From Vermamoeba vermiformis (lineage: Eukaryota): a stretch of DNA of 64,000 nt. The notes beneath the pieces are model-generated. The model made no database searches. It was not told the DNA's origin and saw only the letters and a program-made list of their open reading frames with translations. The translations under genes and the position numbers were made by a program. This document shows positions 10,132 through 59,397 of this stretch, in pieces (the first letter of the stretch is position 1; the number at the start of each line of letters is the position of its first letter). The stretch is taken from positions 62,001 to 126,000 of the forward strand of contig JBEWZL010000101.1 in NCBI GenBank assembly GCA_045837725.1, in the 5' to 3' direction.

Positions 10132-11616
10132 TCAAAAATTAGGATTATATTTGATCATGCCGTTTTTGATCATTGCTCGGCGAATCGATGCGTTATTGCT
10201 GTAGCGAGTGAAGATCGCGAAAGGTGGATCTCCCCAACATGCATAAGCAACTGCGGCAGGTCTACGAATTGTTGATAGTAACAGCTGTTGGAAATATTGC
10301 GCGTAACGGTCATCTTGATGAATGACAACAGGGAAATTCGGATCCTGCAGGACTTTTTCTTTAAATTCAGCTTGCCCAATTAAACTTATCACAATGTGCG
10401 GGAGTTGATACGGCTGATAAAAATCTTGCCATATACGACCTAAGCCTTTCTTACGATAGGCCGCTAACTTAATTTGAGACTTTGTGATTGGGCCGAAAGG
10501 TCTTCTTGCGATCTGCTCCAAAACTTGTCTGCATTTATCCATGTAGTTAATCCTCGTGCCGTCTGGCTCCTTTAACTCCATATCGTACTTTGACACGTCA
10601 ACCTGTCAAAAGAATTGTCATTGGTTAATATCGCGTTAACCGTAAAAATATGATGACACGTGTCAAAGATATTTTAAGCGTTTACGTACGACGAGGACTA
10701 CCACGCTTTCATCTTCATGGGCCTGGTAATAATGATAATTTTTCAGATAAATCTCTAACGGAATCGCTCGCAGGCTCCAGATGCTGTTGCAAAAAAATGT
10801 TAACTTTGTATCTAAGATTATTACATAATTCACTGACTCATGGCAGGGTTTCTTCTTATAGACATAATCTCGTTCGTACGTAAATGTCCAGTTTTCGTCG
10901 AACAGCAGCTTTTTGCATTCCGTAGTTGTAAACGACGAACAATTTTCAACGCCTTTATCGGCGCAATACTTCCTCCATATTGGTGCCACATTTAGTACTA
11001 TAGAGCATTAATTTAGTCCTATTATTGATATCCAAAGAACGAACCTTGATTTAGAAGTTTGTTCACCAATATTAAATTGAGACAATCTCTCGGGTGCAGG
11101 TACGAAGCGAATAAATATAACATTTCTGATGGTAATGCGCGTGAGATATCAACTCCACTGCCAAAACAATCATAGTAGGCTGGATCTGTTGAAGTTGTTA
11201 TTAGGGGACTTAAAGGTCCCTTGTGATTTACCTGATGGCACTGGCGCGTATGGCTCATAAAATCCATTAACGTTCTCAATTATATTTAGTGCTGTCTTAT
11301 CGTATTCGCTCAAGCTTCGCGAGACCGAGCGGCTGATGGATCCGAAAGCTGACAGAAGATGTGATCCAGGAATCGCTGTCAGAAATATTAACGAAAATAA
11401 TTAAAAAACGTAATTTATGCAAATTCTTACCAATAAATGATATCAAGGGCGTATAGATCTTCGGCGGCTTTTCTGTCATTTTCGTGGTTATTAAGTAATA
11501 ATTATTCTCAGCACTAGACATCTGCTGATTGATTTCTCTCGTATGCACGTACCTTTCTTGATCGATTTAGCGTTCTTTTCTTCTTTTTTCTCTTTTCTGT
11601 GCTCTTCTTTTTCCAT
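10132..11616 (-). CDS. F-box domain protein (multi-exon)
   Basis: ATG 11616 MEKEEHRKEKKEEKNAKSIKK|; F-box RALPSEMLYLFASYLHPRDCLNLILVNK ... APIWRKYC; further exons 10690-10989 and 10132-10603. Confidence 0.7.
10654..10665. promoter_or_regulatory. Palindrome TGACACGTGTCA (intronic)
   Basis: Exact 12-mer in an F-box gene intron, with TGACA/TGTCA half-sites at 10591-10620; regulatory role inferred. Confidence 0.6.
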
Positions 11617-12002
11617 CCTCCTTGAGATCTGACCTTTTCACCACTCTATGCGTAGTATTAGTAGCAACTACCTTGCGACACGAGGTGTTCAAAAATAAAA
11701 AGAAAAGCACGAAACGAAAGAAAGCAAGGTCGAATCACAAATCCTCAGCTGTCAACCAATTAAGAGGATTTCCAAAACTTAACTAACGGATCCCAATAAC
11801 TTCACGATTATTACAATCATCGTTAATGCTTAATATAACAATAAACCGATCACAGCAACGACTCCACAAACGATTACAGGTTGGATCCATTCAACATTTA
11901 AAGGTAAAGCGAATTGCACACCGTGTAAAAATAATCACAAAAATAAAATTGATAAATAAGTTTTATCGATGGCACGCAATTACAAGTCAATTACATTGCG
12001 CG

Positions 12003-15561
<3,559 letters not shown>

Positions 15562-21211: not shown

Positions 21212-24200
21212 TTAAAAAAATTGTATTATCCACAAGAAATGACATACAGCCATAACAACACCGCTTGAAATTGCGGTAGGATTATCATTGGTCAGCGAAA
21301 ATGATCCTGTGGGCTGTTCTACGGCACATTGAATGCGATAGAAATATTCCGAGGACGAATCAGGATTAAGATCCACAGAAATTTTGCGATCTCTATCGCC
21401 ACCCGCATCCGCTGTCCGACTGAATGATCCGAACAGTTTGTCGCCACTAATGTCTACGTGACATATATCGCTGTCAGGGGCTCTATACTGAATCCTGACT
21501 GAGCTGCCAATGACTTCAACTGTCACATCTGACACGCGACCTTGCAGCCTAGTTCGTTCGGATCATCCGTACCCACACAATATGCGTTGTCAAATACACT
21601 CATTTGATCATCACAATCTGTCTTTGATACGCTGTAATCTGTGATCTCAAAATTTGACTTCACAGTTAAGTTAGTGACACCTGTCAAAACCAATGAGAAT
21701 CCCAGTTTGACACGTGTCAATCTAAACACCTAGATTAAAGACTATAATTACCTGGAATTACGATAATTGACAGCACACTCTTCAAAAGCACTCCTCGAGT
21801 TCGTCGCGTTAATGGGTGGTTTGACGTCTCTTTGGCCGTAAAAAGCAGCGCTCGATATAAATCCGCCGTATTGATAGTCGTTGTTCATTTCACCAATGTT
21901 GTTTTCTATCAAAATGCCTGAAACGCGGCAATTGCCAATAAAGGCAAACACTAAAAATGAAATTTTTCAGTCAGTAGCTCAAACAGTCCTAAAATACTAC
22001 GGTACAATAAATTGATCTGATCCAAGGAATAGTTTACAAAAATTAAATCAAGGCAACGATACGTACCAGGAGCAAGTCCTCGAGAAAAACCAGTGTTATG
22101 GGTGATACTGACGTCTTCCAGAGCATAATCGAGGTAAATTGATTGCCCGCCAAAATTAAATACTTTTGTTGGGCCATCCTCTGAACAATAACGGCCGTTA
22201 TTAGGATTATATTTAATAATAGCTAGTTATTGATGGTATACGTACTGCTAGGAAGAGATCTGAAAGTATAATAATCCACGTCGATAATGTTGTTCGAGAT
22301 GCGGATGCGTTGCGTGTTTTCAACGGTTGCTGAAGACAGTGTTTCATGTCCAAAGACCATAATACCCTCACTAGTATTGATGATCGTATTGTCGGTAATG
22401 TCCATGTCTGCTATTCCATGATGCTGATTGGCTCCAGTGCCCGCTACAAAAAAAAATTAAGTACGAATGAGATAATTATGGAGTATGGTAAATTAATTAA
22501 TAATAATTAATAACTAAGTACCTCTCGGACTAAACAAGATCGTAGGACCTAAGGGAATTGAATCAGCCCAGTTGCCGTCGAGAAAATATTTCCTCGAACT
22601 TTAAACTGGCGACCGACCTACAAGAAAGGTTTGTTAACAATAGCCTAATATTTGAAACAATATCAGGCGTACTTTAGCTTCGAGTTGATGTCGTAGCATG
22701 TAGTAACGTCCGTTCGAAGTCGCAGATCCAGCCATGTACTTGAGATCCGTATGGATTGTATTTCGCTCGATTATTACGTTGAATGGCATAATATCTCCAA
22801 ACTGTTCATAAATACCAAAGCGTATTAGTTATGATGATTAAGGAAAACTGAGTAAGATCGGATCTGCAGATCTTACCTCTTCGGCGAAGATCGTGATTCC
22901 CGGAATGTCCTTAATTAGATTATTATAGATCATTTTGTTCACGCCTGTAGTGATACTAAACGCTACTCCAACATAGTTGGCAGTTTTGGCGTATTCGTAG
23001 GTATTTGTAACGGGTTTAACGCCTTTCCAGTTGCTCAACTCTTGCACGACTGAATTCATCACCACGCTGTCATTAGCAGCCATTTGAATAGCACTCAAAT
23101 ACCGATAAGGAAAGCCACGGCCACTGAATATGCACCGATCGAAAACGCATTTTGATGAGCTGCTGAATAAGCCGATAAAGTCCATAATGATATCAATGTC
23201 TTGCACGACCCATCCACCACCATTATAGCCACTCAACGGACCATCTGAAATTTCCAAAATATTAACACATAGCGACAGAAGTTTTTTTTTGTTACCTATA
23301 GTAAGTACTCTGAAAGAATTAGGACTCAGCACGTCGTACAAAACTCCGTTTAATATGCCAGGCACACCACTAACTTGCGCACCAGTCTTAACTTCGATAA
23401 AGCCGCAGTCTGAAAGACATTGACCTACAAAGTGATGTCAGATCTGCGATCGATAACTTTTTTCTGTTTCTTATTGTGAGTATGTAATTGACGTACCAGC
23501 AGGGAAATTGCTTTGCATGGCCATGGAGCTATCAGACGGCAAGCTGGAAATGCCCCACAAGCCATTGAACGTAGTGACCGAGCTGGAGGTAACTTGAACG
23601 ACACCATAGGCAATCTCGTAATTATGCGACGATGATATAGTTATAACACCATCATTAATCGACGTTATGCTGATTTTAGGATTGACAGCCAACATGTGTG
23701 GTGATGACAGGTGTCACTTCGTTTGACACGGACGCAATGTCAATGGGTCTAAATGCTGCATACACTAGTCCAGTGCCTATCACCCATGACCCACTCACCG
23801 AGGAGGACCGCAAATCCAACATGATTGCATTGGTAGGTGCTTGATCACGCGAGTAAATGCGGTGATGAGAATTGAGACCGATCAGGCCTTCAACTCCAGC
23901 CACACTGACCAAACTGTGCGTCGTAATCAATTCGTTGTCGGTGATTGTGTCGTTCAATACTAGCACCACCAGATCGCCGTCGAGATTAATTTGAGATATT
24001 CCAAAATACACGGGAGTCACTTCACTCGGATCCATTGTTGTGAACTCAATTCCAACGAACCGCCAGTAATGCGTGTCGTACGCCCTAACGAGCCCTGCAC
24101 CTCCTGCATTTTTTGCGTACTTTGGATGCAGGGTCAGAGTTGCCATATAAGGCAAGTACGAAGGGTTTGTACGGACACCTTCGGGTGGCAATAAATCTAA

Positions 24201-26314: not shown

Positions 26315-29300
26315 ATGGACGATATTATTAGCGTACTGTCTAATGAAATCTTGCTGCAAATAGCAGAGTTCATTCCCACTGCGCGAGACCTGTTCAGTTT
26401 TCGTGTTGTTTGTCAAGCCTTTAATCTGATCGCAGATGACGTGTCATCGACTCTTTGGCGTCAGTATTACGCAGACAGATTTAATATTAACGAACGCGAG
26501 CTCGAGGGTCATAATGAAATTAAGTAAGTAGAATTTCTTTCGTGCCATTAAAAATCTTTTTGCGTGGAATTCATCTTTTTAACTCCTTAATAGCACCAAA
26601 ATTTTAGCTAAGCTATATGAAATATTATTTACCAGTTTTTAAGCAAATTGACGGCTGTAAGCCTATTTTTGTGGTGATCTGAATTTTCCAAATATTTTCC
26701 CCGCATTTATTTGAATTGACAGGGACTGGAAAGAACGATACAAGACAAGAGTACTTAAGGAAGATAGTCTCTTGGCTCTATCAGAGCCCATTCCTGACAC
26801 TAGACCACAAACAATCGAGACGTTGAAGCGCATTGTCCACATCCACAACAAAAATCGCGAGCTGAAGCCTTTAATTGCTCCAGAGCCCGAACCTGCACCA
26901 GAGCCTACACCTAATGCCGCTATTGAAGAGCCCAACGACCAACCTATAATTCCTGCAGCTGATCCGGACGCACCAGCGAATCCTGAAGAAGAAAATCCAC
27001 CACCGCCACAAAACCCAGTTCTTGGCGGGCTGCAAGTCGAGGCAGACGGTGGATTGTTTTTCAATGCCGTAAAGCACGACGAGGCAGAATTATACGCACG
27101 AGCTCCGTTGGATCAACTTCGTTGGTGCCTGCAAGATTTGTATTCTCAGATCAACAACTTTAAGCTCTTGATTCGCATGTCAGGTACGTATAATATAATC
27201 CATTACAATAGTACTAATTATAATAGCCGTCCAAGAAAATGAGGACGAAGAAGATGTCAAAAAAATTGAGCTACATCCGTTCGTGCAAGTCGGAGCTTTT
27301 GACTTGGTTATTTCGCTATTGAACAAATACGTCGATGATGCCCAAACATTTGAACACGCCCTCTTTTGCGCTGATTACTTAGGTATTACCTCTTCTATCA
27401 AAAATATTTTTTCTTCCGTAAGGCCTTACACTTTTTTCATACAGTGCGAGCCATGGCGTTTTCGACTGAAATTTTGGGCATTGTAAATCCATTGCTGCAC
27501 GCTATTGTAGTGCACACTGAGCAAAAGATTCGATCACGTGCCACACATCTGTTGTGGTACTTGATGAAACAGACGTACGTGCGTCGTTTGTTCTGCGAAC
27601 TTGGCGGCATTCCTCAATTTGCCAAATTGATCAAAACACCCGAGAGCGAGGACAATCCTCGGTCACTCCACATCAACTGCATTGCGACGTTGACCTGGGT
27701 CTATTCAGGTAATTATCTGCAAAGAAAATTGTTGCAAAACTAACGCTCGGACCATGACAGAAAACAGCGATGCTGAAATGCAAGCAGCAGATTTAGTGCC
27801 GCAAATGATTGACAACTTGAAAGTCGATGACGGCTCAAGATTGGCTGAAGTGTCAGCCAAGTTATTGTACAGCTTGGCTAAATTTGGTAAGTGGCAAAAG
27901 TGACACGTGTCATCGCATGTCACTAACAAAAATCTCCTCAGACTCGGCTAGAATTGTCAAGCTTGGTGGTGTTGAGGCCTTGGCAAGTCTTATTAACCAC
28001 AAGAACGAAGCGATTGCCTCATCGGCTGTTGACACTTTACTCTCACTCAGCTGGGAAGGTACGCACTCGAACAACTTTGAACGAGCTTCTTTGGCTCAGA
28101 GAACACGGGAACTAATTATCCTTTACAGAGGCCGGTGCCGCGTACTTGGCCGAGACCAGCACGATGGAGTCAATCATCACGCTGATGCGTCAAAATGCTG
28201 AGCCTGGTGACAATCAATCACTGATCATTGTCGACAAGTGTCTCAGACTGCTGTACAACTTGATGTGCCACTCAGGTAAGTCCTGGAATAATATAATTAT
28301 ACGTACGTAGATTAATACTAATGTGTTGTTATAGAGCTTCAAATGATGAAGTTCCTCGAGTTGGATGGGCTCAAAACAATGTTCGATATTTTGCCGTACT
28401 GCTTGCAGACTGAAGAAGGTCCCAAAACACTCGTTCTATCCTATTTGAATATGATGAGTGGTTCTATTAACGGTGCCATGGAGATGGGTAAGTTTCTTAA
28501 GACATTTGTTCTGGATGTGGCAAGCTAACGAGATCTCAACTTGTTGCAGGTCAAACTGAAGAACTGTTGCCAATGTTGAAAGCCAACCTCGAGAAATTTG
28601 CAGCGATGATCGATCACACTGACTTGCGCGTGCAACATCGCGTCGTGGATTTCTTCTTGAGCGTCACTTGCGGTAAGTCAGCATAGGTTGTATTAAATGT
28701 AATGACGCTAATTTCCTTTTATAGTAACTGCACCTGAAGGCCCCTCAGCTGAGGCTATTATTAGCAAGCTGTTGAATAAGTTGAAGTCGCCCGACAGTGA
28801 AAAATATCTGAGACTTAACTCGGCAAACGTGTTGGCCAACTTGGCTGAAACTGATTGTACGTCACCATTTAATATCTCATTATAGTAATATATTAACATA
28901 TAATATAGCTCAATTATTCGCTTTCTGCGATTTGAAAGATTTGACCGATTTCTTGACGGATGCATTGACCGCAGCGGATGTGACCAAAGAAGAAGAGACT
29001 TGGTCCTTGAGTTTGATCGGATACTTATTAAACTTGGGTATGTTACAATAGGCAAACATATAACTTCTATAGTATTAACATTTGCTATTCCAGAGGCCGT
29101 GCGAGATTTCCTTATTGCCAAGCCCAAGGCCCTCGACGTGTTATTTGAATGCACCAAACAACCCCTGGCCGCTGATGTACGCTTCAGAGCTGTGCTGGCA
29201 TTCAGTTACTTGAATCTGACTGGCAAGCTCGACCGCAAGTACCTCACGTCCCTCGAAGACTTTGCGACGAGTGTCTTCTTCAACATCAAATGGGGCTTTG

Positions 29301-34514: not shown

Positions 34515-34743
34515 AGCGTGCAGATCCGGCTTTCCCACAATGTAAACATGACATGTACATATGTTAATTCCCAACCTACCTATTTATTTCACATAAACTA
34601 CTTTTATAACATGGCGTAAAGAGTTATTTTATTTTTGACTTACCAGGGATTTAACACAAACTTCGGCATTGATTGACCACCAAACGGAAGATTCCTTATT
34701 ATGTTAGCGGTAGACTAGGCAAATCCACACAGCAATAGAGAGC

Positions 34744-36396: not shown

Positions 36397-36408
36397 TGAC
36401 ACGTGTCA
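36397..36408. promoter_or_regulatory. Palindrome TGACACGTGTCA (intergenic, ~380 bp upstream of glucan synthase)
   Basis: Exact 12-mer. Confidence 0.6.
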
Positions 36409-36784: not shown

Positions 36785-39700
36785 ATGTCTGACAAAGAAG
36801 AAGTCCCTCAACAACCGGCCTCCCACTCGACCAATGAAAGCGATCCGTCGAAGGAGGTAGAGATGGACCACGTTCCTCCTGTTGCAGACGGCCACAGACT
36901 CACTGCTGCTATTGGCGACAACCACAGCACTAGTGAAGAAGGGTCACATAAGGAAGGAATTTTTTCTAGCTCAGATGAGCTGAAGGAAAGAAAAAAGAAG
37001 AACAGAGAATCCGTCGCGTCGAATAGCCAATTCGAAAAGCCCAATCTCAAGACTCTTTTCAACCGAGAAAATGGCCAGCCTATCGAGGAGAATACCAAGA
37101 AAGGCCGTCCTCCCGTTCCCGGCAAACTTTACGACGATGATGTTAGACAGATCATAGATGTGCAATATAAGCTCATGCGCCAGACACTCAAGGGCGAGGA
37201 CATCTACGCAAACGAGGTGGCTATGGAATTTTTGGACGGATATTTGTGCTGGACAGAGCGCAATGACCCGAAGAAATTAGATGAGTCGATCAGAAGAATC
37301 AATGAAGCCCCCATGCACTGTCTTCTGCTTTTCAAGACTATTTACGCAGTTTGCGAACAAATTTCACACGCTGGCGATCGTCTGAGTCAGATCTATCACC
37401 AGGAACTCTACAAGAAAGAGCCCTATGGTCGTCTGAATGACCTCGTGACTGAAAAACTCGACGATATTGCTAACGGAAGCAAAAGCCGAAAGAATTATGA
37501 CAAGGTAAAGATTTCAAAACATAATATACGTTAGAATACTGAAATTAAAACTAAATCAGCACGTCGGATCGGAATTTCGGAGATTTATTTTGAGTGTGCC
37601 AAATGACTGATAAGCTATTCTTAATAGGAAGCCGGCGCTGACATAAGACAGACTTATCACCGCGGTTTGGACGAGCTTAAAACACATCAAGTAAGTTTAA
37701 AAAATTACTATTTTTGTGGTCTCAAAGTTTAAATGTACCATTTCGCAATTATACCAACGCAACGCAGTGGAAAATATGTGACTAACAAGCGCATTTATCA
37801 GGTTAATTTCGACGATATTGCGGATACCGCGCGCATTAACCAAAACAAGCCAATTAAGACTTTCCGCGAGCCTGAAAGTGTTTGGTCGTACATTGTTACG
37901 CTAAGAAACTATTGGTCAATTATTCAGTTCAATGGATTGATGATTTTCTGCATTTGGTGGTGGTTGCAGCCCGAAGACATCACGTTAATGATGTTGGCCT
38001 ATTTTGAAGGCGCATCTATGTTCGTTGGACTTTTGCTCGATTTCTCCTCTCGTATTTATGTGTATAGGTAAGTTATTGTTGAATTCTCGATACCCCAGAT
38101 ATTCGAATCAAATTTAATCAAATTTCAGTGGATTTGAGAAAACTAACGTGTTTTTCTGAATTATTATAGAGGCTCACCTTATCGCCTTGGTTTCTTCGGC
38201 TGGCCAGGCTGGATGGTCTTCTTCCACTGGCTCATATTCGTGATTTCATTGGCTTACTTCCCTGTTCTGATTGTAATCCCAATGTTGTCAGCGGATTTGT
38301 TCAAAGGCGAGCCACCAATCATTCTGATTGCTATCGTGTGCGGTGTCTTCTTAATTCGTTGGATCTACAATATCCTCCTAGTTTTGAAGTTCCCGTACAT
38401 CGCCAAGGGTCATCTCAAGCAATCTCGTCCGCCTTTGGGACAACGCGTTAAGCGAGGTACGTTCTGCGCCGTTAAAAATAACCACCGTACTCGAATACTA
38501 ACGAACATATTACTCTTAGGTCTGTTGATGTTGGGCTACTTCCTCATCACAATCGCCATCATGGTGATCTTGATCCGCTGGTTCATTTTGCCCACTCTCC
38601 AAAACTCCTCGTTCTGGAAGGTCTGCACCACTCAGCGCTCAAGCCTCGACTCTGCGTACATTCTTTGCGTCATGGGCACGACCTCTTTGTGGTTGCCTAT
38701 TTTGGCTACTGTCCTTATTTTGAACTACGTAAGTACTTGACACGTGTCAACAATATCCGAACGGAATTCTAACGAATTCTTTAACAGATTGCCCATACCT
38801 TGGTGCTCTCTATCATCGGCTCCGTGATGGCTCAGTCGAAGGGCATTGGTGAGTTCAGAGGCGAGAACTACGCCGTTCAAACTGCACTCAGCAAGCTCGA
38901 TCGCATGGTCGAATCTACCAAAGAAATCTACGACGCCAAGATTGCCCACCACGGCGAAAAGCAACGTGACGACGCCGGCAAGACGATCAAGCCGCAAATG
39001 TTCCACTTCACGATGAAGAAACAAGACAGCTTCGTGTATCAGACTCAAAAGTACAACAGCGCCACGCACATCTGGTGGCACATTATGTACGATCTCGTGG
39101 AGACTGATATGATCAACGAGGAACAAGCTTGGAACTCTCTCTTCCGCGAAAAGATGTACAGCATCGACTTGCCCAATGAACCCGAAAAGGCCATTCGCTT
39201 CTTCTTGAGTTCGTTGTCCAAGATCCACACCAGCGAAGTCACCAGCGTCGATTTGGACCGATTGCCTTCATTGTCCATGTTGATCCCGACGTACTCTGAA
39301 GCCTTGTTGTTCACTGAAAACTACCTCCGCAACACTACCGACAAGAAGATTAGCAACATTGAATTCTTGGCCAAGAAGTACAAGAACGAGTGGAAGAATT
39401 TCACTGAACGTATGGCTGCGACTTACAAGATCCCCAACGACCCTGACTGGATGTTGCAAAACTTCTTGCACCCACCAAAGGACGCCACTGACAAGAAGTT
39501 CTCCAAGAAGCTCGACGAAGAAGTCATGTTCTGGGCCTCTTTGCGCGGTCAAACCGTCTATAGAACCATTCGTGGCGCTCACTGCTACAGAACTGCTCTC
39601 GAGCTCTTGTTCCACGACTGCTTGCCCGACGCTGACTTCGAAGCTCTTCAAAAGAAGGTCGACGAGAAGCTGCAAATCATCTTGGCTCACCAATTGTTCG

Positions 39701-45600: not shown

Positions 45601-45790
45601 GAAGAGCGAGTCTGAAGAGCGCGAACAATCTTCTGACCGCGAGTCTGATAATGAAGACGAAGAAGAGAAGTCTGAACGCGACGAAGAGAGCGAGAACGGA
45701 TCCGACAATGAAGAAGAGAAGAGCGGATCTGACAACGAAGATGAAGCCCAAGAGAGCGTCAAAGAAAGCGTCGAATCTGACGATGAATAA
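42695..45790 (+). CDS. FHA domain + Lys/Glu-rich TPKK repeats + bromodomain chromatin protein
   Basis: Exons 1-2 FSFG|TDSTCHIRL...VHCQV...VLVNG...LNNGDMISIG...FRYE (FHA); repeated KTPKKN(T/S)KAKK; bromodomain PFMHRPSKTKYPEYY...GDYETLEDMAKDFRQMFINFKRFNRPTSDVY; acidic tail. Confidence 0.85.
43660..44440 (+). repeat. Imperfect coding tandem repeats alternating basic (AKTPKK) and acidic (EEKEESEAE) blocks
   Basis: At least 5 KTPKK copies with nucleotide-level similarity (aagac.cc.aagaagaacactaag). Confidence 0.85.
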
Positions 45791-46069
45791 GAAAGTTATT
45801 CAAATCTCAATTTTGTCGTAATAATCAACCTGTATCATAGCACGGCGATGTTTAATTGCATCGTCTAATAAAAGTTTATTTAATTCCAACTAGATCGAAC
45901 AACACAAGTTACTAAATGTGACGAAGAATATTATTGTGTAAATAGTGTAATTAAGAATATTCGGAGCATTAAGGGAGTTTTAAAAAAGTAAGTAGATCGG
46001 ATCGCGTGACGAGAAAAATTCAAATTAATTTAAAAATTATTTAGAGAATATTATATTGCCTTACATTGA

Positions 46070-47187
46070 ATGAACCAGCAAGTACCATCATTATTCAAAT
46101 TATGTGTGACGGTGATTGCAAGAAGTCAAGATCCTATAATCACTACACGGCTTAGTACTGCATCTTCAGTGCCAGCTAAGCTTGCAAATATTATAGCAAC
46201 TAGCGCATTAAAAGAGGACGTACCAATAACCGAAGAATTTTGTCGAATATATTTTAATGAAAATGTTACGAAGCTTGATCTGCAACACAGAAGTCCAAAA
46301 CGAGACTATTCAACGTTATTATGCCACGTAATGAACTCGTGTCCTAATTTAATCGAGTTATATATTCCTGGATGGAAAGACAGAGAAACACTAATCAAAG
46401 TTATGGATCAGATCCAATGTCGATACTTGCAACGCTTAGATATATCAGGAATCGACGATAACATCATATGGTCTGCTATATTTAGAGAGTTGCCTTATTT
46501 GGAACAACTAAAAGCGAATGGAACGATCTATTTCGACGATGAATGCTTGAAAACACTGGCCAAAGACGAAGAAACGACCGATGACACGTGTCAAAATGAG
46601 GACTCTGCTGAAAACTTCAATTTGACACTTTTACATTTGAGTGGCAACAGCGTCACGCACAGAGCGATGGATTTTATTGCTCAGTGTCCGAATCTGACCA
46701 ATCTGAATTTGGCTGGCAAAATGTCGTTAGACGATCAATCGATCAACAAATTATCGTAAGATCACATCGATATTTTGCACTGACTATTAACACGACTTTT
46801 TTCAGGAAATGTACCAGTTTAGATTCCATTGATTTGACCGGATGCACTCGGTTGTCAAGCGAAGCAATCGTAGACTTTTGTTTGACACATACACGGTTGA
46901 CATCTGTCAATTTGAGCTCAAACAGGCAATTGACAGTTGATGGCATCATGCAGATAGTACGAGGCTTGAAACACTCGCTACAACGGTTTTCTTTAGGCTG
47001 GCACAAAAATCTCATGACAAATGAAGCCATCCAAATGATCAATCTTTGCAGTAATTTACAGTACTTGAATCTGCTCGGCTGTCACAAAGTCAATGTCGAT
47101 CAGGTGTCAGAATACGTCTCGCACTTGACGTATTTATCCGTGATTGGATTCAAAAAATCACAGCTAGCTAAAAATGCAAAAAAATAA
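46070..47187 (+). CDS. Cys-containing LRR protein with N-terminal BC-box-like motif (2 exons)
   Basis: VPSLFKLCVTVIAR (BC-box consensus); CPNLIELYI, LQRLDISG, CPNLTNLNLAG, CTSLDSIDLTGCTRLS, LQYLNLLGCHKV. Confidence 0.8.
46582..46593. promoter_or_regulatory. Palindrome TGACACGTGTCA (inside CDS, encodes part of DDTCQ)
   Basis: Exact 12-mer; variant TGACATCTGTCA at 46898-46909. Confidence 0.5.
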
Positions 47188-47252
47188 AGCGAGGGTTTTA
47201 GCTGTTATATTACAAGTGCAGTATTAACATGTTAAATTATGATCGCTGTGGT

Positions 47253-49506: not shown

Positions 49507-49627
49507 TGTGTATTGATATTGAATATGACAGAAATATTGGTCAATCGAAAAAGGACCGCAAAACCCTCCTCAACGCGGCAGAAATGTAAAAGTTCAGTGA
49601 ACGGTGAAACTGACTTGTTTGGTTGGA

Positions 49628-49667
49628 CCAATAGTATCACGCCACTTGTCGTGTATCGCGCGATTGG
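49628..49667. promoter_or_regulatory. CCAAT - SRE (ATCACGCCAC) - inverted CCAAT module
   Basis: CCAAT 49628-49632, ATCACGCCAC 49636-49645, ATTGG 49663-49667; 120-160 bp upstream of the SREBP-like ATG. Confidence 0.55.
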
Positions 49668-50141
49668 CCGTGCTATCAGTCCAAACTTGGAAAGTGAGTA
49701 TATTGTTATTGTCTATGTCTGTCAATGCGTTGAACACGTTTCGTAGCGAAGGATGGTACTCCTCGATCAAGGTCGAGTGCGGGAATAACTCCTTTTGAAA
49801 CGGTTAAAAATACCTTTAATTAGCGACGGCAAGGATTGATCGTCCATAATTGAATTGATCGAGCTGTAAGGTTTTTACTAATTTCAGACGAATCCGGATT
49901 TCAGGTTTTGTTGCAGTTTGAATTGCTTGCCAAATTCAGCACTAACGCAATACATAGGATTCAACAATTATGTTGCCTTTGTCCCGTGTTGCGGATTACA
50001 GTGATTGTGTCAATTAAACTTTTCTCCGGCCATAAATCGCAGCAAAGTTTCGATCAAAAATCTCGCACAAAAATAACCTCGCAATTCAGCATTTGGTATT
50101 CCTAAAATACCTCCTTACACCGCCACAGCTTCCCTTGTATC

Positions 50142-53100
50142 ATGGAGTTGTCTCGCGAGGGTGTTGTCGTGCGAGGTCTAACGCGATCTTACGGATCGCA
50201 CCGCGTTCTCGACAAACTCGATATGAACGTTGAACCCGGTAGTATTTATGGTGCGTACACATATGCTATTTGTGGTAATTATTAACTCGTTGATTTAGCT
50301 TTATTGGGGCCTAGCGGATCTGGAAAGACAACTCTGCTTAAGGTAAGCGACAAATATCAAATGTGACAATAATAATTTAGAAATTACAACCCTAAGTTAA
50401 TTCATTGCTCATATTATGTCCACCTATTTATTTGAGAATTTCAATAATTTTCGTATTTACGTTACTACGCCTACGCTATTATTGTTCAGCAAAATAAGTT
50501 GCTAATTTTACTTTAGCTATTATTAGGCAGGCTCGAGCCTGATTATGGCTCAGTAGTAGTGCTCGGTAAACCGCCAAACGCACGTGCTCATCCAGTTCCT
50601 GGACCAGCAGTTGGTAATTTAATCCTCCGTATTCATGAATCGTTCGAGTATTAACTATATAATTTAAAGGCTATGCGCCTCAAGAATTTGCTTTACACGA
50701 AGATCTATCAATTCGCGAGACGTTATTATTTTACTCGAGCCTGAATCAAATGAGCGCGAGTGATTTTAAAGCACGCAAGAAATATTTATTGGAAATGTTA
50801 GATTTACCTTCAGAAAAACGAATTATCAAAACTTTAAGTGGCGGTCAACAAAGGCGCGTGTCACTAGCCGTGGCATTATTGCACAATCCAGAGCTATTGA
50901 TCCTCGATGAACCGACTGTAGGTGTGGACCCAATGTTGAGATCTCGCATTTGGGACTATTTGCGCGACATTACGCAGAAGACAGGTGTCACTGTCATCAT
51001 TACAACTCACTACATCGAAGAGGCTCGGTACGTACTTATAATAAGAGTCAATATCAAAACCGATGGATGAACTTTACGTTAACTAACGCTATTAAACTAT
51101 TATAGAGGTGCTGATCGCGTCGGATTGATGAGACACGGAAAGTAAGTGTCAAAATGTCAAGTTGCGAGAGTGACACTTTGTAACAAAATTTTACTGCAGG
51201 TTATTAGCGGAGGCAGATCCCGAGTCATTGCTTAAAGAGTACAACGCGACTAATCTCGAAGACGTGTTCTTACAGCTGTGTCGCGCTGAACACTACAAGA
51301 AGGAACATCATCAAAATGACCTCCCTGAAACGATGGAAAAAGGTCAATCAGTCGTCGAACGAAAGCCACCAGCGCGGGTAAGAACGACAGGGCTTAATAA
51401 AATCACGCGCTTTATACTAATGCATCTGTATCTAGAAAAATGTCGACAAGTTCCCTTCAATCAACGAGGACGGTGATGAACATGACGCGTTGTTACGTAA
51501 GTTCGGAAGTATTAGCTATTGTTCTTATTCTTAATTGTAATTTATAGGCACTAAGAGCTCGAAAAAGCCAAGCAATTGTTGCGCCACGACAGCGAAACAC
51601 GTGTTTGCAATTGCTCGAAGAAAATTGACGCAATTATTGCGTAATTGGCGGTTATTTGCATTTGAATTGTTATTGCCAGTATTTCAAGTGTATTTGCTCT
51701 TATCAGCTATTGGTGGAGATCCTCACAATCTAAAAATAGCGGTACGTACAATTTTATCTCTCCGTAATCTATATTTGACACGTGTCATTTTTAGGTGTTT
51801 AATGAAGATGCAGGAACACCTATTTTTAACGTGCATCTTTCCAATGAATATTTGGGATATTTTGCGCCGAATAATACGGATATGTTTGACTTGATTAATG
51901 TGACTGATTATAACACGGGCTACGACATGGTCAGAAATGCAAAAGGTAAGATATTATTGATTTTAGGCGAATTACTTAATAAATCTATTTTTAGCTTGGG
52001 GTTTCTTGCACTTTGGTCCAGATTTTTCAACGGGTTTATTGAGCAGAATCAATTTCCCATCGAATCAGACTTACATCAACCAATCAACGATTCATACTTA
52101 TTTGGACATGTCGAACTATCAAGTCGTTGCATTAATTTTGCGTCAGATGCAGACCTCTTTCGAGAGTAAGTTTCAATTTCCTTTTTAGGCAATCGACTTC
52201 TAACCACTTTGATCAGGCATGTCCGAAGCCAAGCTAGGCTCGAATATGAACCCTATTGATATCAATGCGGTCTACGGCTCAACAAATACAAACTACGTCG
52301 CGTTCATTGCGCCAGGCATGATTGTCATGACCACATTTGCATTCGCGATTGGTCTGACAGCGCTGGCCTTTGTGCGCGAGAAGAGCGATGGCTGTTTAGA
52401 TCGAATATTCTCGACGGGTATGTATTGGAGATGAATGAGTTGCACGCGTGCGAGTATTACAATGACACGTTAATTTGACAGGTGTCAAAGCGCGAAGTGT
52501 CATTGGCGGTCATTTCCTCACGCACAGTTTGATCGGTGTGTTCCAGACTGTATTCTTATTAATAGAAGTAGTGTACATATTTAAGGTACGCATATCATCC
52601 CCGTCAAAACACTCGTTCATAGCTCATTTTTTTATTGCAGATCCCAGTCGCTGGCCTCGTGGTGTATGTCTTCGCAATGATGTTGATCTTACAATTTGCG
52701 GGCATGAGCTTGGGTCTGTTGATATCAACGTAAGTACTAGACTACGGTTAGGTTACTAGATCTAACAGATCACGTAGTGCCTCAACGTCGGAACGTGATG
52801 CCGTTCAACTGACACTCGGCTCGTTCTTCCCTGTAATGATTATGAGCGGCATTCTTTGGCCTATTGAAGCCGTAAGCTCACATCATAAATATATAAATGT
52901 GAGCTGATCTAACACACTTTTAGATCCCGAAGTACTTGGTGTGGATCTCCAAGATATTGCCAACGATGTGGGCAGCAGATGCAATGCGCAGTGTCATGAT
53001 TCGAGGCTGGGGCATGGAGTGGCAAGGTGTATGGCAATCATTCTTGATCACTGGTGCGTGGGCCCTGGCATTGGTGGTGTTGGCCTCGTTCAACTTGTCC

Positions 53101-53163
53101 GAGAAAGAAAGCCGCTGGTGGTGGAAACTAACGCGTTGTTGTCGCAAGGAGAAGACTAAATAG
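50142..53163 (+). CDS. ABC half-transporter, NBD-TMD order, ABCH/AbcG20-like
   Basis: LLGPSGSGKTT (Walker A), LSGGQQRRVSLAVALLHNPELLILDEPTVGVDP, IITTHYIEEA, LEDVFL; ABC2-type TMD (FIAPGMIV, REKSDGCLDR, SGILWPIEA, RSVMIRGWG). Confidence 0.92.
51776..51787. promoter_or_regulatory. Palindrome TGACACGTGTCA (intronic)
   Basis: Exact 12-mer just before the 3' splice site; variant TGACAGGTGTCA at 52476-52487 across another acceptor. Confidence 0.6.
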
Positions 53164-53440
53164 AAAAGATTCTCTATAGATGCGTTCTAGAAGTGTTTCT
53201 TTAATTTAATGGCATGTGATTCGTACCCGGTTACGTGTGAATCAGAAGGGAATTATATTTGATTTATTTGAATTGTAGGTAAAGATGCAACCGTGAGAAT
53301 GGTTTTAATTGAAATAGATGTTTATAGGAAGGTAGCATTTGCCACTGGACAAGAGACTGGTCCTGCTGCCAACTATTTAAGCGAAACAATCAATTTTTCG
53401 AATCATTTTCATATCACGGAACAAAGAACAACAACAAACG

Positions 53441-53860
53441 ATGGGTGTTTTTCAATCATCACTTACTTTTGATCGCGAGAAGATCAGCACTGACGGAGGT
53501 ATCAAGTACGAAGGATACTGGGCATCCGAAGAAGACAAGGCTTCTCCGTTCCCTTTTCCAGTTGGAAGTGACACTCCTTGGCCTGGAAAGGAAGAGTTCT
53601 TAACGAAATTAAGAGCTAAACAAGAAAAGGCTGAAGTGATTTCATACAGAGGTTTATCCCACTGCAGATTAGTTGAAAAGAACGGATGTGAGTCGGAACT
53701 TCCGCCTGGAATGGATCCCTTAAAAAACAACGGTGCTTCTGAATATAAAATGGTCACAGCAAATGGCGACGTCATTCACTGGCCAGAAGGATACGAGCAT
53801 TACATCGAAGTTCACAACGTCAAACCCAGCAGAGAGTTTTACAACTTTATTATGAATTAA
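53441..53860 (+). CDS. Intronless 139-aa hypothetical protein (Cys/His motifs), copy 1
   Basis: Single ORF YEGYW...YRGLSHCRL...NG..EY...WPEGYEHYIEVHNVKPSREFY; TATTTAA upstream; A/C-rich start context; paralogue at 57219. Confidence 0.85.
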   Translation: MGVFQSSLTFDREKISTDGGIKYEGYWASEEDKASPFPFPVGSDTPWPGKEEFLTKLRAKQEKAEVISYRGLSHCRLVEKNGCESELPPGMDPLKNNGASEYKMVTANGDVIHWPEGYEHYIEVHNVKPSREFYNFIMN

Positions 53861-54126
53861 ACAAGGTTTATTTGTAATTTGCTTGCAGTGGATTGAATAA
53901 AAGCATTCCAGAAATTTATCGGATATTAAAAAATTGCGAACACAACACGGTATTCGACTGATTGACATCTACCCTCTTAGTTGTTCTCCCGGGTTGAACG
54001 CTGAATATTTCAGGAAGCAGGTTTACGTTTAAATTGAAAAATAGATTAGTTTGATTTTTAGATCGCAAGTAAGAATCGTCACAACTCTCCTCCGAAGCAG
54101 CATTAGTATAAATTATAAAAGGGTGA

Positions 54127-56977
54127 ATGAGCGCGAAAGAGTACACGATTGCCGATATATTTGATGCAGCAAAGACCAATGACAGCAAAAAGTTGCTTGA
54201 TATTCTATGCAACTCCGAAATTAATTACCTTCGCCAGTTAAGACAAACATTAGTAGGCGATCTGTGGGCTCTTGAAACGGTAGGATATTTTAATTGAATA
54301 TTTTGAATATTATAAAAGTATTTTTTGAAAATTAATTAATAATTAATAAAATTCAAGGCGTTACTGCACGGAAATATGGAAGCGGCGAATGTACTAGCGT
54401 GGTATGAATTACGCGGTGGAGAAGTAGACTCCAACACTAAACCGGACAATATTACAATATCAAAGTCTGCCTGGTGCGATTGTTTAAGTAAGCGCTTGCT
54501 TAAGAATTGCATATCACGCGTTTGGCACCTAATTTTACCGGAAATACAGGCTCCTCTGTACTTCGCATGAAAAAAATGTATAGGAAGAAGCTACGAGCCC
54601 CCTCAGACTATGTAGAGCACATATTCAATCACGGATCATACCACCAATTAAGAGCAAGGGAGTGGCATCCTTTTTATTATGTAGTGCGCGATTACTACAG
54701 CAAAATTTTGACGCCGTTTGAAGCCATCGCGCATCCGGCGGCGTTCATGGCCTTAGTGCGACTAGACGACAAATTTCGGATCCTCAGTCCAGAAGGTAAG
54801 CAGCTCTTCAACACTACACTACACCACTCGCTCGGGCTTGTTGGGCGTTAAGTTCTCAGAAATTTCAATTTTGTTTTTTTTCGGTCAAAATTTGGTCAAC
54901 GCGTACTGACCTGTTTGATTTCCGTAGGATACTCTCTCGCAATGCATATCGTAATGTCAAGGAGTATTAACAAGCAGCACAAGCTCGCCATGCTACAATT
55001 CCTTGAATTCTTCGACGAAGAAGTTTTTCAGATCCCGAGTGGCCCTGAGGGACTCGTGCCGTCAGTTTATTGCTTGAAGACGAATCAAGTGTTTTTATTT
55101 GAGCGAATTCCAGTGTTGAAAGACTTTTCTAAATGTACGTCAGCTCATTTAAGGTAGTTCGAACTAACTTACATGCTGCAGTCCGATTTAACGACGGTAA
55201 AACAATCATGAATTATTACACCAATAACAAAATTTCGATGATAACTGCTAATCAAAGAAGAAAAGTTTATACTGAGACGTAAGCTAGGCCATCAAACGAT
55301 AAATTGATAATTAATTATTGTATATACAATAGGGATGGTGCGTTAAACACTTTCCTAATAAGGAATATAACCAGCGGAAGTGATACAAAGTATTATGATA
55401 GTAAGTTAGATGAGTTTATCGATACGATAAATGTAACCAAAGAGCCAATAACAAATTAATGCTTTCGCAGATCTGGCTATCGAAGCGATAGAGACGCTAT
55501 TCAACAACGGCAAGCAAGATCAATTGAAAGAATATGCCGATATGATAGCTGCGACAGACGACGCAGTAATGGGGGCTTACATGCTGCAGATCGGCTACCA
55601 ATTCGACAGTCTGAACAAATTCAGAAACAATCGTAAGCAACTCTATTCTGAGCCTCCTTTACTATATTTATATTATTATATAGTATTAGCCCTAACGAGC
55701 AAGAAAGAATATTTCAAGCAAGATCCGCAGACTTCATTCGACTTTATTAATCTCCCGCGCGAGATGTTGGAGCTAATTATGGTAGAGCTGTCAGCACGTG
55801 ACGTAATGAGCCTATTTATGGTCACTAAGCAGATGCACCAATGGTTCCAAACCTTCGATAGTGCTCTACTATGGCAAAATGTGCTAAAAAATACGAAGAT
55901 CTCGCTCGACGGAGACATTCCGATGCCGACCAAAGACATGAAAAGATACGTTTTGAATACGGAAAGGTACACGTATCATTTACATTGATGGTAAATTAAC
56001 TAGGCTCAATTTAGATACCGTCGCAATTGGCGGAGAGGAAAATTCCGAGAACGACTTTTGTACTCCAGGCCTGGAGAAAGTGTTCGCGACTACACACTCG
56101 ATGACGATTGGTTGTGTACAGTATCATATGGACCTAACACGCTGCGATATACAAACTTGCACACCGAACAGACTTTTACATTGGCTCCGTCCGGCAACCC
56201 GCACAGGTACATCACTCAATGCTTCTTAGATCCGCAGCCATTGTCCGCGCCACTTGTTGCGTTGTACAGCTCACATGGTGAACTGTATTATGGACGACTT
56301 GGCGATGAAATTACGAAGAGTAAGATACAGCTGGAGGCTTCTTATGATTATGGCCTGATTCATGCGCAAAGTCACGACCGAGTGGTAGCATCAAAACGTA
56401 CGTGGAACTAAATGAAATTTCGTTGTTTGTTGCTAACCAAACCTCATTTGCAGATCTGCAAGTCGTGGATATGAATACTCAGCAAGTCGTAGCAGCGCCT
56501 GGATTTCGCGTGTCAGAAGCAATACCACACGCGTTCAATCGTTCAATGACCATTGCCAATCAGGGCAATGAGGTAATGCTACTCGACAAGAACATGCTCG
56601 TAGTGCAGCAACTGATGGTCCAACTGACTGACATGCCCTCGGTGAGACTGATTGGCATGATCGACGAATTCACTTTGGCTGTGGGTGCGATCAAGGGTAT
56701 CAATCTGTATGACACTCGCAAACTTGAAGCAGACAACTATCAACTATTGATGGAATGCAACTCAACAAGATATGTCAGTTTAGATGCGAGAAATCAACGC
56801 ATGTTGGCGCCAGTAGGGCCGTATCAGATGTCCGCGCAAATTGACTTGAAAACGCGGCAATGGGAGCGAGTGTGGAAAAATTTCAAGACTATGTATTACA
56901 ACCCATACCCGCGCATCAACGGCAGATACATGGTGTTCCTAGGCTCGCAAGTCAAGGTCTATGACTTCAGTGTATAG
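54127..56977 (+). CDS. Protein with ankyrin-like N-terminus, internal F-box and C-terminal beta-propeller-like region
   Basis: MSAKEYTIADIFDAAKTNDSKKL; F-box FINLPREMLELIMVELSARDVMSLFMVTKQMHQW...LLWQNV; RRNWRRG; INLYDTRK and VKVYDFSV WD-like ends. Confidence 0.7.
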
Positions 56978-57218
56978 ATTTGCTGTCAAATTGCTTGTAC
57001 TAAAATAGGATCATACAAATTTGGATAAATTGCGATTCAATCCGTGGTCATTTGTATTAACAATAACAAATGAAATAAACTAAAAAAAGTTGTAACAATC
57101 ATGTGACTTTTCGCTGACGTGACTTGACAACAAGGTACAACATTTGTCCCCTGACGAGACAGGACCGGCGTTAGAACTTGTGCTTTTATTCCCGCTACAC
57201 ACAAGACAGAAGACAACA

Positions 57219-57635
57219 ATGGAGACGTCACTCGACTCATTTGATCGCGAGGTCATCAATGTTGACCACGGAATTAAATACGAAGGCTACTGGGCCACAT
57301 CTGCTGAGGACAAATCGTCCAATTTTCCTTTTCCATGTAGATACGATGCTCCTTGGGCCGGAAAGGATGTATTCGTAAGAAAATTGCGAGAAAAACAAGA
57401 GAAAGCGGAAGTTCTTCGTTTCAAAGGGTTTTCGACCTGCAGATTGGTTGGTGCTGACGGATGCGTAGCTACCCCAGCAGGTTTTCTAGGAGAAGTATGC
57501 ATGAATGGAACGGCGGAGTACAAGATTACCGCGCCTAATGGCGAAGTGATTCACTGGCCTGAAGGATACGAACACTACATCCAAGTTCACAACGTCAAAC
57601 CCAGCAGAGAGTTTTACAATTTCATTATGAATTAA
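57219..57635 (+). CDS. Intronless 138-aa hypothetical protein, copy 2
   Basis: METSLDSFDRE...YEGYW...FKGFSTCRL...WPEGYEHYIQVHNVKPSREFYNFIMN; clear paralogue of 53441-53860. Confidence 0.85.
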   Translation: METSLDSFDREVINVDHGIKYEGYWATSAEDKSSNFPFPCRYDAPWAGKDVFVRKLREKQEKAEVLRFKGFSTCRLVGADGCVATPAGFLGEVCMNGTAEYKITAPNGEVIHWPEGYEHYIQVHNVKPSREFYNFIMN

Positions 57636-57692
57636 ACTAATTAATTAAATTGCAAGGTTAATAAATGCAACTTCGATCTACAATAGCTAAAT

Positions 57693-59397
57693 TTATTTAC
57701 AGGCAGATAGATCCAAGCACATCAGGATCGCGTCTTCATTCTCATCGCGGTAATAGTTATCTAAATACTTAGCAGGCTTAAATCCGAATTTTTGATACAA
57801 TTGTTGCGCACCCTTGTTGAATATTGACACGTGCAAGAAAATCTTTAAAAGAAAAAACAAAAGTTAGCAACTCGGATCCGACATTTTGACAACTCAAACA
57901 ACATTAGCAATGTGATGAATATGCTGTGAGTAGTATAGTAAATTGCGATAGGGTAGACTTACATGAGGGATGCCAGAGAGCTTGGCCCAGTCCACTACAT
58001 GCTGCATAAACTTGCTGCCAACACCGCGTCCTCGGCTGTGTGATGCGACAGCAATGCTGACCACTGTGACTTCGTTGTGTTTGATCCAAAAGCTCACGTA
58101 GCCTGCAATCACGTGCGTCACTGGCTCGTGTTGTTGTTGCTGACACGTGTCATCAATGTCCATGTCATCCGAGTCGTAGTACTGGTACTGGCGCAGCAAC
58201 TTCCTAGTTTGGCACAGCTCGCGCAGTTCGTGCTCATCGGCATCGATCTCGCGTTCTGCGACCAGTAAAAACACGTTGTTCTTGTACAGCGACTTCTTGA
58301 AGAAACTGCGTTGATAGGGCTCGAAAAATGATTCGTTCTCGATCAGCATGACGTCATCTAAATCTTCTTCCGTCATCTCGCGCAGGGTTACTGTTATAAC
58401 AGGAAATTATTTCAGATCCAGTACAAGTATTGAAATATTTGAAAGAAATCTTGATCGAATAGCTACGTACTCTTTTTCTCGTCGCATATAATCTTTTTAA
58501 ACTGTTCTGATGAAGGAATTGTTCGTTGATTTTGCGCCACAACTTGTTCTTGTAATTGTTTGCGTGAGCCACTCTTGCCGAGAGCATCTTCGTAACAAAT
58601 AGGGAATTGAAATTGCGGCCATAGGTCACGTGGTGGTAAGGCGAAGGGCGTCTTCAAGCACAAATGGTTCAATGGATGGACTGAGTTGTGGATCTCGCAT
58701 TTCTCGCATAGATCTACTTTAGGACAATTGAGACATATGAAGCGAGCTCCTATTATAGGTCCCGAGCATGAACTGCAGAATAATTCTTTGTGTACGATCA
58801 TCGCATCTGTTTCAAATTGTTATTCAGACGTGATTCAAGTCCGTATAATGTATATATTACCTTCTATAACCTTCTCGTCGACTAATAAAGGCAATGTCAT
58901 ATTTGGTCGCTTCTCAACTTCAGGTAATGGATAATACACTTTGATGAACAGATGGGCAGGTTGATGATGTTTCTTTTCGAGGTTCTCAGCTTCGCATATC
59001 TCACATAGATCGTAGTCTTCGCAAATGCTGCATCTGTAGCGAATACCGAGGATTGGAAAGTCACAAGCATCGCAAATTGCTTCGTGATCCAGTTGCTAAC
59101 CGAAGAGCGTTAATGTACGGTTATTGAGACGAAAAATATGTAGAAAATTGAGTAAGAAAGTTGTTATTGTGCGAAACATAACGAATAGATATGACAGATC
59201 TGAGTAAATTGAACCAAATTGAAAATATCTGAAATAAATTCAATTAAATACTGTAATAGCGCGATATTTCACTACTAATTATAAGCTTAATATAAAAGCA
59301 CTCCTCTATATTAATAAAAAGGTCTTATCGCTAACGCTCACATCCAGATGGGTTGAAGTCTTTAACATACCTTTATCGTGCTGCTAGCATTCAACAT
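57693..59397 (-). CDS. Tandem ZZ zinc fingers fused to RimI/Ard1-type GNAT acetyltransferase
   Basis: HEAICDACDFPILGIRYRCSICEDYDLCEICE; HKELFCSSCSGPIIGARFICLNCPKVDLCEKCE; REMTEEDLDDVMLIENESF, SIAVASHSRGRGVG, LHVSIFNKGAQQLYQKFGF, YYRDENEDAILM. Confidence 0.88.
58141..58152. promoter_or_regulatory. Palindrome TGACACGTGTCA (inside CDS, encodes part of DDTCQ)
   Basis: Exact 12-mer within an acidic/Gln insertion of the GNAT domain. Confidence 0.5.

Follow-up and report, generated by a model that had tools for sequence, protein, structure and literature searches.

A recurrent 12-bp palindrome in a 64-kb stretch of Vermamoeba vermiformis DNA: a putative protein docking site

What keeps one perfect 12-bp palindrome recurring every few kilobases along a chromosome, inside genes as well as between them? 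The question is raised by a stretch of 64,000 nucleotides of Vermamoeba vermiformis DNA (assembly GCA_045837725.1, contig JBEWZL010000101.1, positions 62,001 to 126,000 of the forward strand), hereafter the window, from whose first letter all coordinates are counted. It holds eight exact copies of the word TGACACGTGTCA, at 10654, 21708, 27901, 36397, 38738, 46582, 51776 and 58141. A previous reading made from the letters alone (the sequence-only reading) had listed these copies and the gaps between them, all of which we reproduced, and had proposed a genome-wide protein-binding landmark, such as a chromatin boundary, loop anchor, replication origin or methylation target. Based on our analysis, the palindrome is not part of a repeat and is very likely a docking site for a protein. 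Protein binding is the best reading of the word, and a role as boundary, loop anchor or origin is no more probable than ordinary gene regulation exerted from introns.

The palindrome is a strongly non-random feature of the window. Markov models of order 1-3 predict 0.004-0.006 copies of TGACACGTGTCA per window, close to the earlier estimate of about 0.003, and none of 100 dinucleotide-preserving shuffles held any copy. With up to one mismatch allowed, 12 matches were found against 0.08 expected; the two-mismatch class as a whole (4 versus 2.4 expected) showed no enrichment. A chance origin is ruled out by these numbers (8 exact copies versus approximately 0.005 expected, and 12 versus 0.08 at one mismatch or fewer). 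An unbiased count returned TGACACGTGTCA as the top 12-mer of the window and its core as the top 10-bp palindrome, at a density of about one exact copy per 8 kb. As a control we used a metagenome search that gave 80 loci, one of them (L001) a close relative and the other 79 serving as background. Across the 796 kb of these 79 loci from other eukaryotes, TGACA-N2-TGTCA occurred five times (two independent occurrences after removal of duplicate contigs) compared to 1.0 expected, so that the enrichment is specific to the organism and does not reflect a general sequence bias.

The real unit is TGACA-N2-TGTCA, with invariant outer pentamers, an invariant spacing and a centre that prefers CG yet tolerates change. 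Twelve inverted TGACA..TGTCA pairs are spaced by 2 and none by 0, 1 or 3-7, compared to 0.15 occurrences of TGACA-N2-TGTCA predicted from half-site frequencies; everted and direct TGACA arrangements showed no spacing peak in the window. The central dinucleotide of these 12 family members is CG in eight, CC/GG in three (21675, 23705, 52476), TC in one (46898) and GC in none. Three of the four one-mismatch copies alter it by a C/G transversion, and the centre changes therefore do not follow the pattern of CpG decay. In the GACACGTGTC copies, the outermost T and A, six bases off the dyad, are invariant in all eight. Beyond the 12 bp the preference is weak: position -1 is A or T for 19 of 24 half-sites, and 5 of 16 have GA at -2/-1 (P = 0.001).

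The sequence-only reading had described the word as a CACGTG G-box combined with inverted TGACA half-sites. Both components were borne out, and the half-site architecture is in fact a stronger signal than the CACGTG core. Compared with 200 third-order Markov simulations, sites with both half-sites intact and an altered centre numbered four versus 0.13 expected (approximately 31-fold over). Sites with one full half plus CACGTG and the other side altered numbered three versus 0.6, all of them TGACACGTGC (8639, 12782, 57825), and ACACGTGT with other outer bases was found twice versus 0.81 expected. Plain CACGTG outside the 12-mers was counted 22 times against 11.6 expected (about 1.9-fold), which suggests that an ordinary G-box element exists too.

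In order to place the sites relative to genes, contexts were curated by hand for each of them, because an automatic spliced-ORF (open reading frame) finder merged or missed genes and codon scoring discriminated poorly; gene counts for the whole window are approximate. Spliced RNA evidence comes from contigs of run X4, and introns without spliced contigs were predicted from splice signals and reading frames. The exact copies, centre variants and near-copies are located as follows:

8639..8650: one-mismatch copy TGACACGTGCCA, ankyrin gene, within an intron of 157 nt predicted at 8602-8758 (plus strand)
10654..10665: exact copy of TGACACGTGTCA, intronic, minus-strand gene; the 87-nt intron (10603-10689) is predicted from GTACGT...TTAAC...CAG signals and flanking open frames
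12782..12793: two-mismatch copy TGACACGTGCTA, of the TGACACGTGC class
21675..21686: centre variant TGACACCTGTCA, 33 bp from the copy at 21708 and sharing its predicted intron, directly next to the CTAAC branch point
21708..21719: exact copy, within an intron predicted at ~21630-21752, close to the 3' end of a gene on the minus strand
23705..23716: centre variant TGACAGGTGTCA, within the same minus-strand gene as 21708, coding or intronic
27901..27912: exact copy, F-box gene on the plus strand, within an intron of 55 nt predicted at 27887-27941, ~1.6 kb from the start of the gene
36397..36408: exact copy, in the intergenic region of a tandem gene pair; the glucan synthase ATG (36785) follows 388 bp downstream
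38738..38749: exact copy, in the 59-nt intron 38729-38787 of the glucan synthase gene, 3 nt past the GTAAGT donor
46582..46593: exact copy, coding, plus-strand leucine-rich-repeat (LRR) gene, where GAT GAC ACG TGT CAA encodes DDTCQ in an acidic loop
46898..46909: centre variant TGACATCTGTCA, coding, same LRR gene as 46582, within RLTSVN (LRR consensus)
51776..51787: exact copy, ABC transporter gene on the plus strand, immediately ahead of the 3' splice site of an intron of 53 nt predicted at 51742-51794
52476..52487: centre variant TGACAGGTGTCA, across the 3' splice site of intron 52418-52481 (confirmed by RNA), with TTTGACAG before and GTGTCA after the junction
57825: TGACACGTGCAA, of the TGACACGTGC class
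58141..58152: exact copy, coding, minus-strand GNAT acetyltransferase gene, where the same codons encode DDTCQ

Near-copies had been claimed at 8639 and 12782. The former carries one mismatch and the latter two, and three one-mismatch copies (21675, 23705, 52476) had been overlooked. The variant at 46898 could be a chance occurrence; its RLTSVN peptide is conserved in the protein P0132.

The eight exact copies thus comprise five in short introns, one intergenic and two coding, the same tally as in the sequence-only reading. One of the five introns is RNA-confirmed, namely 38729-38787, by a spliced GT..AG joint in X4 contigs. The predicted intron 51742-51794 has RNA-confirmed neighbours, and frame analysis of the intron holding 21708 gave a donor (CAG followed by GTAATT), a CACTAAC branch and an acceptor with open frames on either side. 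Strong-signal candidates put introns at ~11% of the window (at most ~20%), and for five intronic copies among eight, P is 0.0004 if introns make up 10% of the window and 0.010 if they make up 20%. This excess is largely explained by coding constraint, since six of the eight copies are non-coding. Within introns the word has no set position: one copy starts 3 nt past the donor, and another sits immediately ahead of the acceptor. The exact copies show no promoter preference. The earlier statement that none lies in the short divergent promoters calls for a caveat at site 36397, located upstream of the glucan synthase ATG. This site lies ~500 bp downstream of an LRR gene and upstream of an RNA contig start near 36741.

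Two introns contain related strings. Just beyond the 3' splice site of the 10654 intron, at 10590-10602, TTGACGTGTCAA contains TGACGTGTCA, a 10-bp relative of the palindrome that is two central bases short. Half-sites are packed densely into intron 8602-8758, where at least five of them (TGTCA/TGACA) accompany the one-mismatch copy: a tandem AAAGTGTCA AAAGTGTCA, GAGTGTCAC, ATTGTCATTG and a TTGACAG at the acceptor.

The distribution of the copies along the window shows both regularity and clustering. Gaps between the eight exact copies range from 2.3 to 11.1 kb with a coefficient of variation of 0.40, and 1.1% of random placements are as even (seven gaps, P = 0.011). The suggestion that copies lie near convergent gene ends is weakly supported: three of eight fall within 650 bp of one of five convergent junctions (P = 0.039), on an approximate, hand-made junction map and with a cut-off picked after seeing the data. 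The near-copies at 8639 and 57825 are also close to convergent junctions. Of the four centre variants, three have an exact copy within 700 bp (P = 0.019), at distances of 33, 316 and 700 bp. Within 100 bp of an exact copy, isolated half-sites are about twice as frequent as expected (10 versus 4.4, P = 0.026). These variant pairs and the half-site excess look like homotypic binding-site clusters. By a rough reckoning rather than a computation, short gaps are not obviously in excess overall when all 12 family members are considered. The 12 members are found in or next to seven of an estimated ~30 genes, with approximate territories and long genes among them; three belong to one gene without a name and two each to the glucan synthase, LRR and ABC transporter genes.

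The two coding copies allow conservation to be followed in relatives. Sites 46582 and 58141 share the frame GAT GAC ACG TGT CA and give DDTCQ in acidic loops of two unrelated proteins. ACG is a minor threonine codon (16%), and the chance that DTCQ after a T-ending codon is spelled as exactly this 12-mer is ~0.04. Comparing the coding sites at the protein level, we found DDTCQ retained in the GNAT protein P0125 (99% identical). Among five more distant GNAT relatives (78-89% identical in the alignment), DDTCQ is present in two, DDMCQ in two and DDACQ in one. The LRR protein has relatives with DDTCQ at 97% and 85% identity and DDTRQ at 81%, and its acidic flanks vary more than the pentapeptide. 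Overall, DDTCQ is kept in four of the eight relatives, every change falling within the two central codons. Judging from these peptides, the word must be broken in four of the eight more distant relatives, and the changes correspond to word bases 5, 6 and 8 if each is one base substitution. Because DDTCQ is retained in relatives, the word at the coding sites would predate the divergence of these species.

DNA was compared for L001, which shows 76-89% nucleotide identity to the window. The region of site 36397 does not align with it. L001 also lacks the intronless LRR gene 34863-35891 found here upstream of the glucan synthase (window 34515-36533, ~2.0 kb, versus L001 1597-2361, ~0.76 kb), a gene presence/absence difference between close relatives. 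As judged from these comparisons, the sites are old but turn over, being partly kept in relatives.

Could the word be the trace of a repeat or of a mobile element? The flanks of the copies are unrelated to each other, and a self-BLAST of the window returned eight distinct repeat pairs, none of them at any site. We therefore rejected a miniature inverted-repeat transposable element or other transposon remnant on the basis of unrelated flanks, the absence of a terminal repeat and the lack of self-BLAST matches at the sites. The earlier statement of unrelated flanks without a transposon remnant is in line with both tests. No direct repeat indicating a target-site duplication was seen by eye to bracket the word in the flanks. 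An origin of the introns as introners was likewise rejected: motif-bearing introns share the word alone, with no full-length similarity. The proposed role as a methylation target found nothing in its favour, as CpG observed/expected is 1.13 in the window, i.e. without depletion, and there is thus no signature of mutagenic CpG methylation.

A related possibility is a non-adaptive origin, in which biased mutation, repair or gene conversion would spread or maintain the word, or in which it would be all that remains of an extinct mobile element. It would then resemble HIP1 of cyanobacteria, a dispersed 8-bp bacterial palindrome whose role is not known. In favour of this, the word keeps no constant position relative to genes, most copies are exact, both coding and non-coding sequence contain it, and some relatives have not kept the sites. 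We nevertheless consider it very improbable: no flanking homology, target-site duplication or repeat family was found, and the L001 intron orthologous to 38729-38787 differs by substitutions and a 2-nt indel instead of a clean 12-bp insertion. Strict half-sites and spacing with a tolerant centre are what dimer binding predicts, DDTCQ is older than the split of species at 82-88% protein identity, and the density of about one per 8 kb is low, HIP1 being far denser.

An element acting at the RNA level, either as a pre-mRNA hairpin or duplex or as an RNA-binding-protein site affecting the splicing of short introns, is extremely improbable in our view. It would draw on the five intronic copies and on two copies that abut or replace the likely branch point; TGAC resembles the branch-site core. 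Folding gave a mixed picture. As RNA, the lone motif forms a stem of only 4-5 bp; the five introns that carry it divide into three whose folding does not exceed that of shuffles (z = -1.3, -0.4, -0.1) and two that fold better (z = -3.4, -3.1), because the word pairs with a nearby second copy or half-site. Against an RNA role, site 36397 lies upstream of the transcript contig, the position within introns is inconsistent, the intron excess is largely coding constraint, and perfect dyad symmetry is the signature of proteins that recognise DNA as a double strand. Nothing in the window matched in Rfam and tRNA scans, so that the motif-bearing introns contain no known snoRNA or other RNA gene.

Which protein could read such a site? 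The closest geometric match among known systems is offered by TALE homeodomains. In the excerpted structural work, two TGIF1 homeodomains occupy the two halves of the palindrome TGACAGCTGTCA in a crystal (PMC6158717), and the MEIS3 word given in the part consulted of another study is TGACAGGTGTCA, letter-identical to the variant found three times here (PMC5449588). These dimer sites share with the present word the inverted TGACA pentamers, the 2-bp spacer, the total of 12 bp and a variable centre. They differ in that their centres are GC or GG, whereas CG is preferred here (8/12), and they come from animal in-vitro and enhancer work, whereas the sites described here are dispersed, mostly intronic perfect copies in a protist. 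For Chlamydomonas, the accessible portion of the source describes ZYRE (YGACAYGAC), which depends on the TALE protein GSP1 and acts from promoters and, in one tested gene, from the first intron (PMC4889651). On that partial account, ZYRE is likewise a TGAC-type element of a unicellular eukaryote tied to a TALE heterodimer, but it is a degenerate direct YGAC repeat enriched at promoters of one co-expressed gene class. The present word is an exact inverted repeat located mostly deep inside genes.

The chief alternative reader is an ordinary G-box factor of the bZIP or bHLH type, for which the word would be the organism's preferred palindrome of the G-box or abscisic-acid-responsive element (ABRE) kind. 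Plant elements of this kind (HY5, GBF, ABF; bHLH) have the same CACGTG/ACGT core and the same flanks. As far as the excerpts go, GACACGTGTC is assigned to bZIP in peach promoters (PMC8133646), and the G-box TGACACGTGGCA, 11/12 identical to our word, is linked to HY5 (PMC4415419). The window itself encodes a candidate: ORF 48833-49375 (minus strand), a few kb from 46582 and 51776, has an HLH domain (Pfam HLH, E = 6.6e-6) with the basic region EKRKEYERKRRENL and is a possible CACGTG reader, judging from its sequence; a PDB sequence search with it gave no match. In L032 (16089-16140; also L033 and L039), from an unrelated AT-rich organism, TGCCACGTGGCA, TGTCACGTGGCA and TGACACGTGTCA stand ~20 bp apart, a trio that looks like a textbook G-box cluster and in which the exact word is one of three G-box palindromes. 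A G-box factor would further explain CACGTG in all eight exact copies, the 1.9-fold excess of plain CACGTG and the three TGACACGTGC sites versus 0.6 expected. However, plant elements are degenerate and sit in promoters within a few hundred bp of the start, whereas seven of the eight exact copies here lie outside promoters, being intragenic; one is upstream of a gene. The outer bases are also invariant, and ACACGTGT with other outer bases is not enriched. The ACGT/CACGTG core is present in 8 of 12 family members, and the four that lack it keep the outer pentamers at exact spacing (4 versus 0.13). These enriched core-less variants speak against a G-box factor, which we regard as quite unlikely; we place a half-site (TALE-like) reader above it, if not by much.

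Our tentative preference, then, is for a high-affinity, operator-like site of a symmetric dimeric DNA-binding protein that is under selection at the DNA level and acts in cis on a subset of genes. A symmetric dimer is proposed because of the dyad symmetry, the invariant spaced pentamers, the tolerant centre, the half-sites nearby and the DNA-level selection in coding sequence. Each subunit would read one TGACA pentamer, the two being inverted and exactly 2 bp apart with CG as the favoured spacer, and the geometry of the reader would be that of TALE-homeodomain dimer sites. Selection on the DNA itself would retain the sites, and they could therefore sit wherever a fixed 12-mer is tolerated, i.e. 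in introns, in intergenic DNA and in DDTCQ loops. From its place within or next to transcription units, the bound protein would most likely affect transcription or local chromatin in cis, and its targets would be the glucan synthase, ABC transporter, LRR, GNAT and F-box genes as well as two genes without names. Protein binding, the family of the reader and the effect of binding are all what we infer from the features described above. Several observations speak against such a site. Exact copies exceed one-mismatch copies 8 to 4, and ordinary transcription-factor sites are degenerate. One exact site of eight is upstream of a gene; the rest, at 0.2-2.2 kb into genes or close to 3' ends, are placed in a way that would be unusual for a regulon element. 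CG is not among the centres (GC, GG) of the published TALE words in the excerpts consulted, and a Pfam scan of ORFs of at least 70 aa (211 of 242, the remainder overlapping two large ORFs that were scanned separately) revealed no TALE homeobox gene in the window. A G-box reader would account better for the TGACACGTGC class and for the excess of CACGTG. In L001, the orthologous glucan synthase intron reads TGACGCGTGAAA, 9/12 identical and no better conserved than the rest of the intron, and the 6.9 kb of this locus hold no copy at two mismatches or fewer and no CACGTG, which is weak evidence because only ~1.3 family members are expected at the density of the window.

The same type of docking site might instead be an architectural landmark every 6-11 kb, serving as a boundary, cohesin or condensin stop, loop anchor, origin or recombination site. 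This somewhat unlikely reading stays alive because of the even spacing, the dominance of exact over degenerate copies and the absence of a promoter bias; the word has also been forced into coding sequence twice, and convergent junctions lie near three exact copies and two near-copies. Known systems provide partial parallels. Yeast Reb1, Abf1 and Cbf1 and animal CTCF recognise long, information-rich words at kilobase spacing and act on chromatin, but the yeast sites are promoter-centred and CTCF sites are not palindromic. We know of no sites of these factors, nor of HIP1, that lie mainly in short spliceosomal introns, and to our knowledge no sequence-defined landmark of such a kind has been described in protists. 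The evenness comes from seven gaps in one 64-kb window, and adding the four centre variants produces close pairs like those of homotypic regulatory clusters. The approximate junction map and the post hoc cut-off weaken the association with gene ends, and sites are lost in some relatives. Cis-regulation is favoured over a landmark because of the close pairs, the half-site clusters and the partial loss in relatives. The full picture of a dimeric protein docking every 6-11 kb to organise chromosomes, its word threaded through introns and proteins (DDTCQ) by strong selection, appears unlikely.

The window surrounding the sites is nuclear eukaryotic DNA of ~41% G+C with many short GT..AG introns and CTAAC-like branch sites; 14 introns of 48-123 nt were read off spliced RNA contigs, and GTAAGT/ACTTAC is the top over-represented hexamer. 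Its genes include a callose-synthase-type glucan synthase, FHA-bromodomain, ankyrin, copine, F-box, LRR, ABC transporter, GNAT, KRR1 and bHLH genes. The nearest relatives of the glucan synthase are metagenome proteins, and named matches (plants, Symbiodinium) reach just 32-40% identity. Of 23 runs, four were compared with the window. Among them, the RNA-seq runs X21-X23, which carry the species label of the DNA source, placed 27, 29 and 154 reads on 36300-56299 at 95-99% identity with fixed differences. The reads fall mostly on a conserved part of the glucan synthase and yield no transcript starts or ends; possible reasons for the sparse, divergent reads are a label that extends to a different strain or species and a low abundance of the organism in these samples.

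Further sequence features of the window were recorded. The FHA-bromodomain protein (43685-44227, plus strand) has internal Lys/Glu-rich repeats (AKTPKKN-type units), seen as DNA self-matches. Two ORFs with a DUF7919 domain (53381-53857 and 57123-57632) share 101 bp at 92% identity at their 3' ends (53762-53862 / 57537-57637) and look like recent paralogues or products of gene conversion. Hexamers containing GATC are strongly over-represented compared to a third-order model (GATCTG 49 versus 22.9, CAGATC 39 versus 20.1, CGGATC 34 versus 16.4, AGATCC 34 versus 18.0), for which codon pairs or a second motif are possible causes, and one GATCTG directly adjoins site 36397.

The site of a dimeric factor is a known kind of element. 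In the literature, as far as the texts consulted show, the string occurs as a plant promoter motif (PMC8133646) or as a probe, and full-text searches with the 12-mer and its 10-bp core returned no report of a dispersed genomic word, as judged by titles and abstracts. New, as far as these searches reach, is a word specified over all 12 bp, mostly intronic, twice encoding DDTCQ and roughly evenly spaced in a protist.

If the palindrome is merely a favourite G-box or TALE site, it would be a useful but ordinary regulatory motif. A landmark, if true, would represent a eukaryotic counterpart of the architecture-imparting words of bacteria, and if the even spacing held genome-wide, sequence-encoded chromosome organisation outside animals would become testable. 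If a protein does dock at these sites, they would form an unusually clean cis-element, placed mostly in introns of 50-120 nt and imposing the same pentapeptide on two unrelated proteins. A single oligonucleotide would then provide a handle for isolating a major DNA-binding factor of an under-sampled protist lineage. Such an element would also make it simple to test whether the introns of compact protist genomes conceal sites with a regulatory or architectural role.

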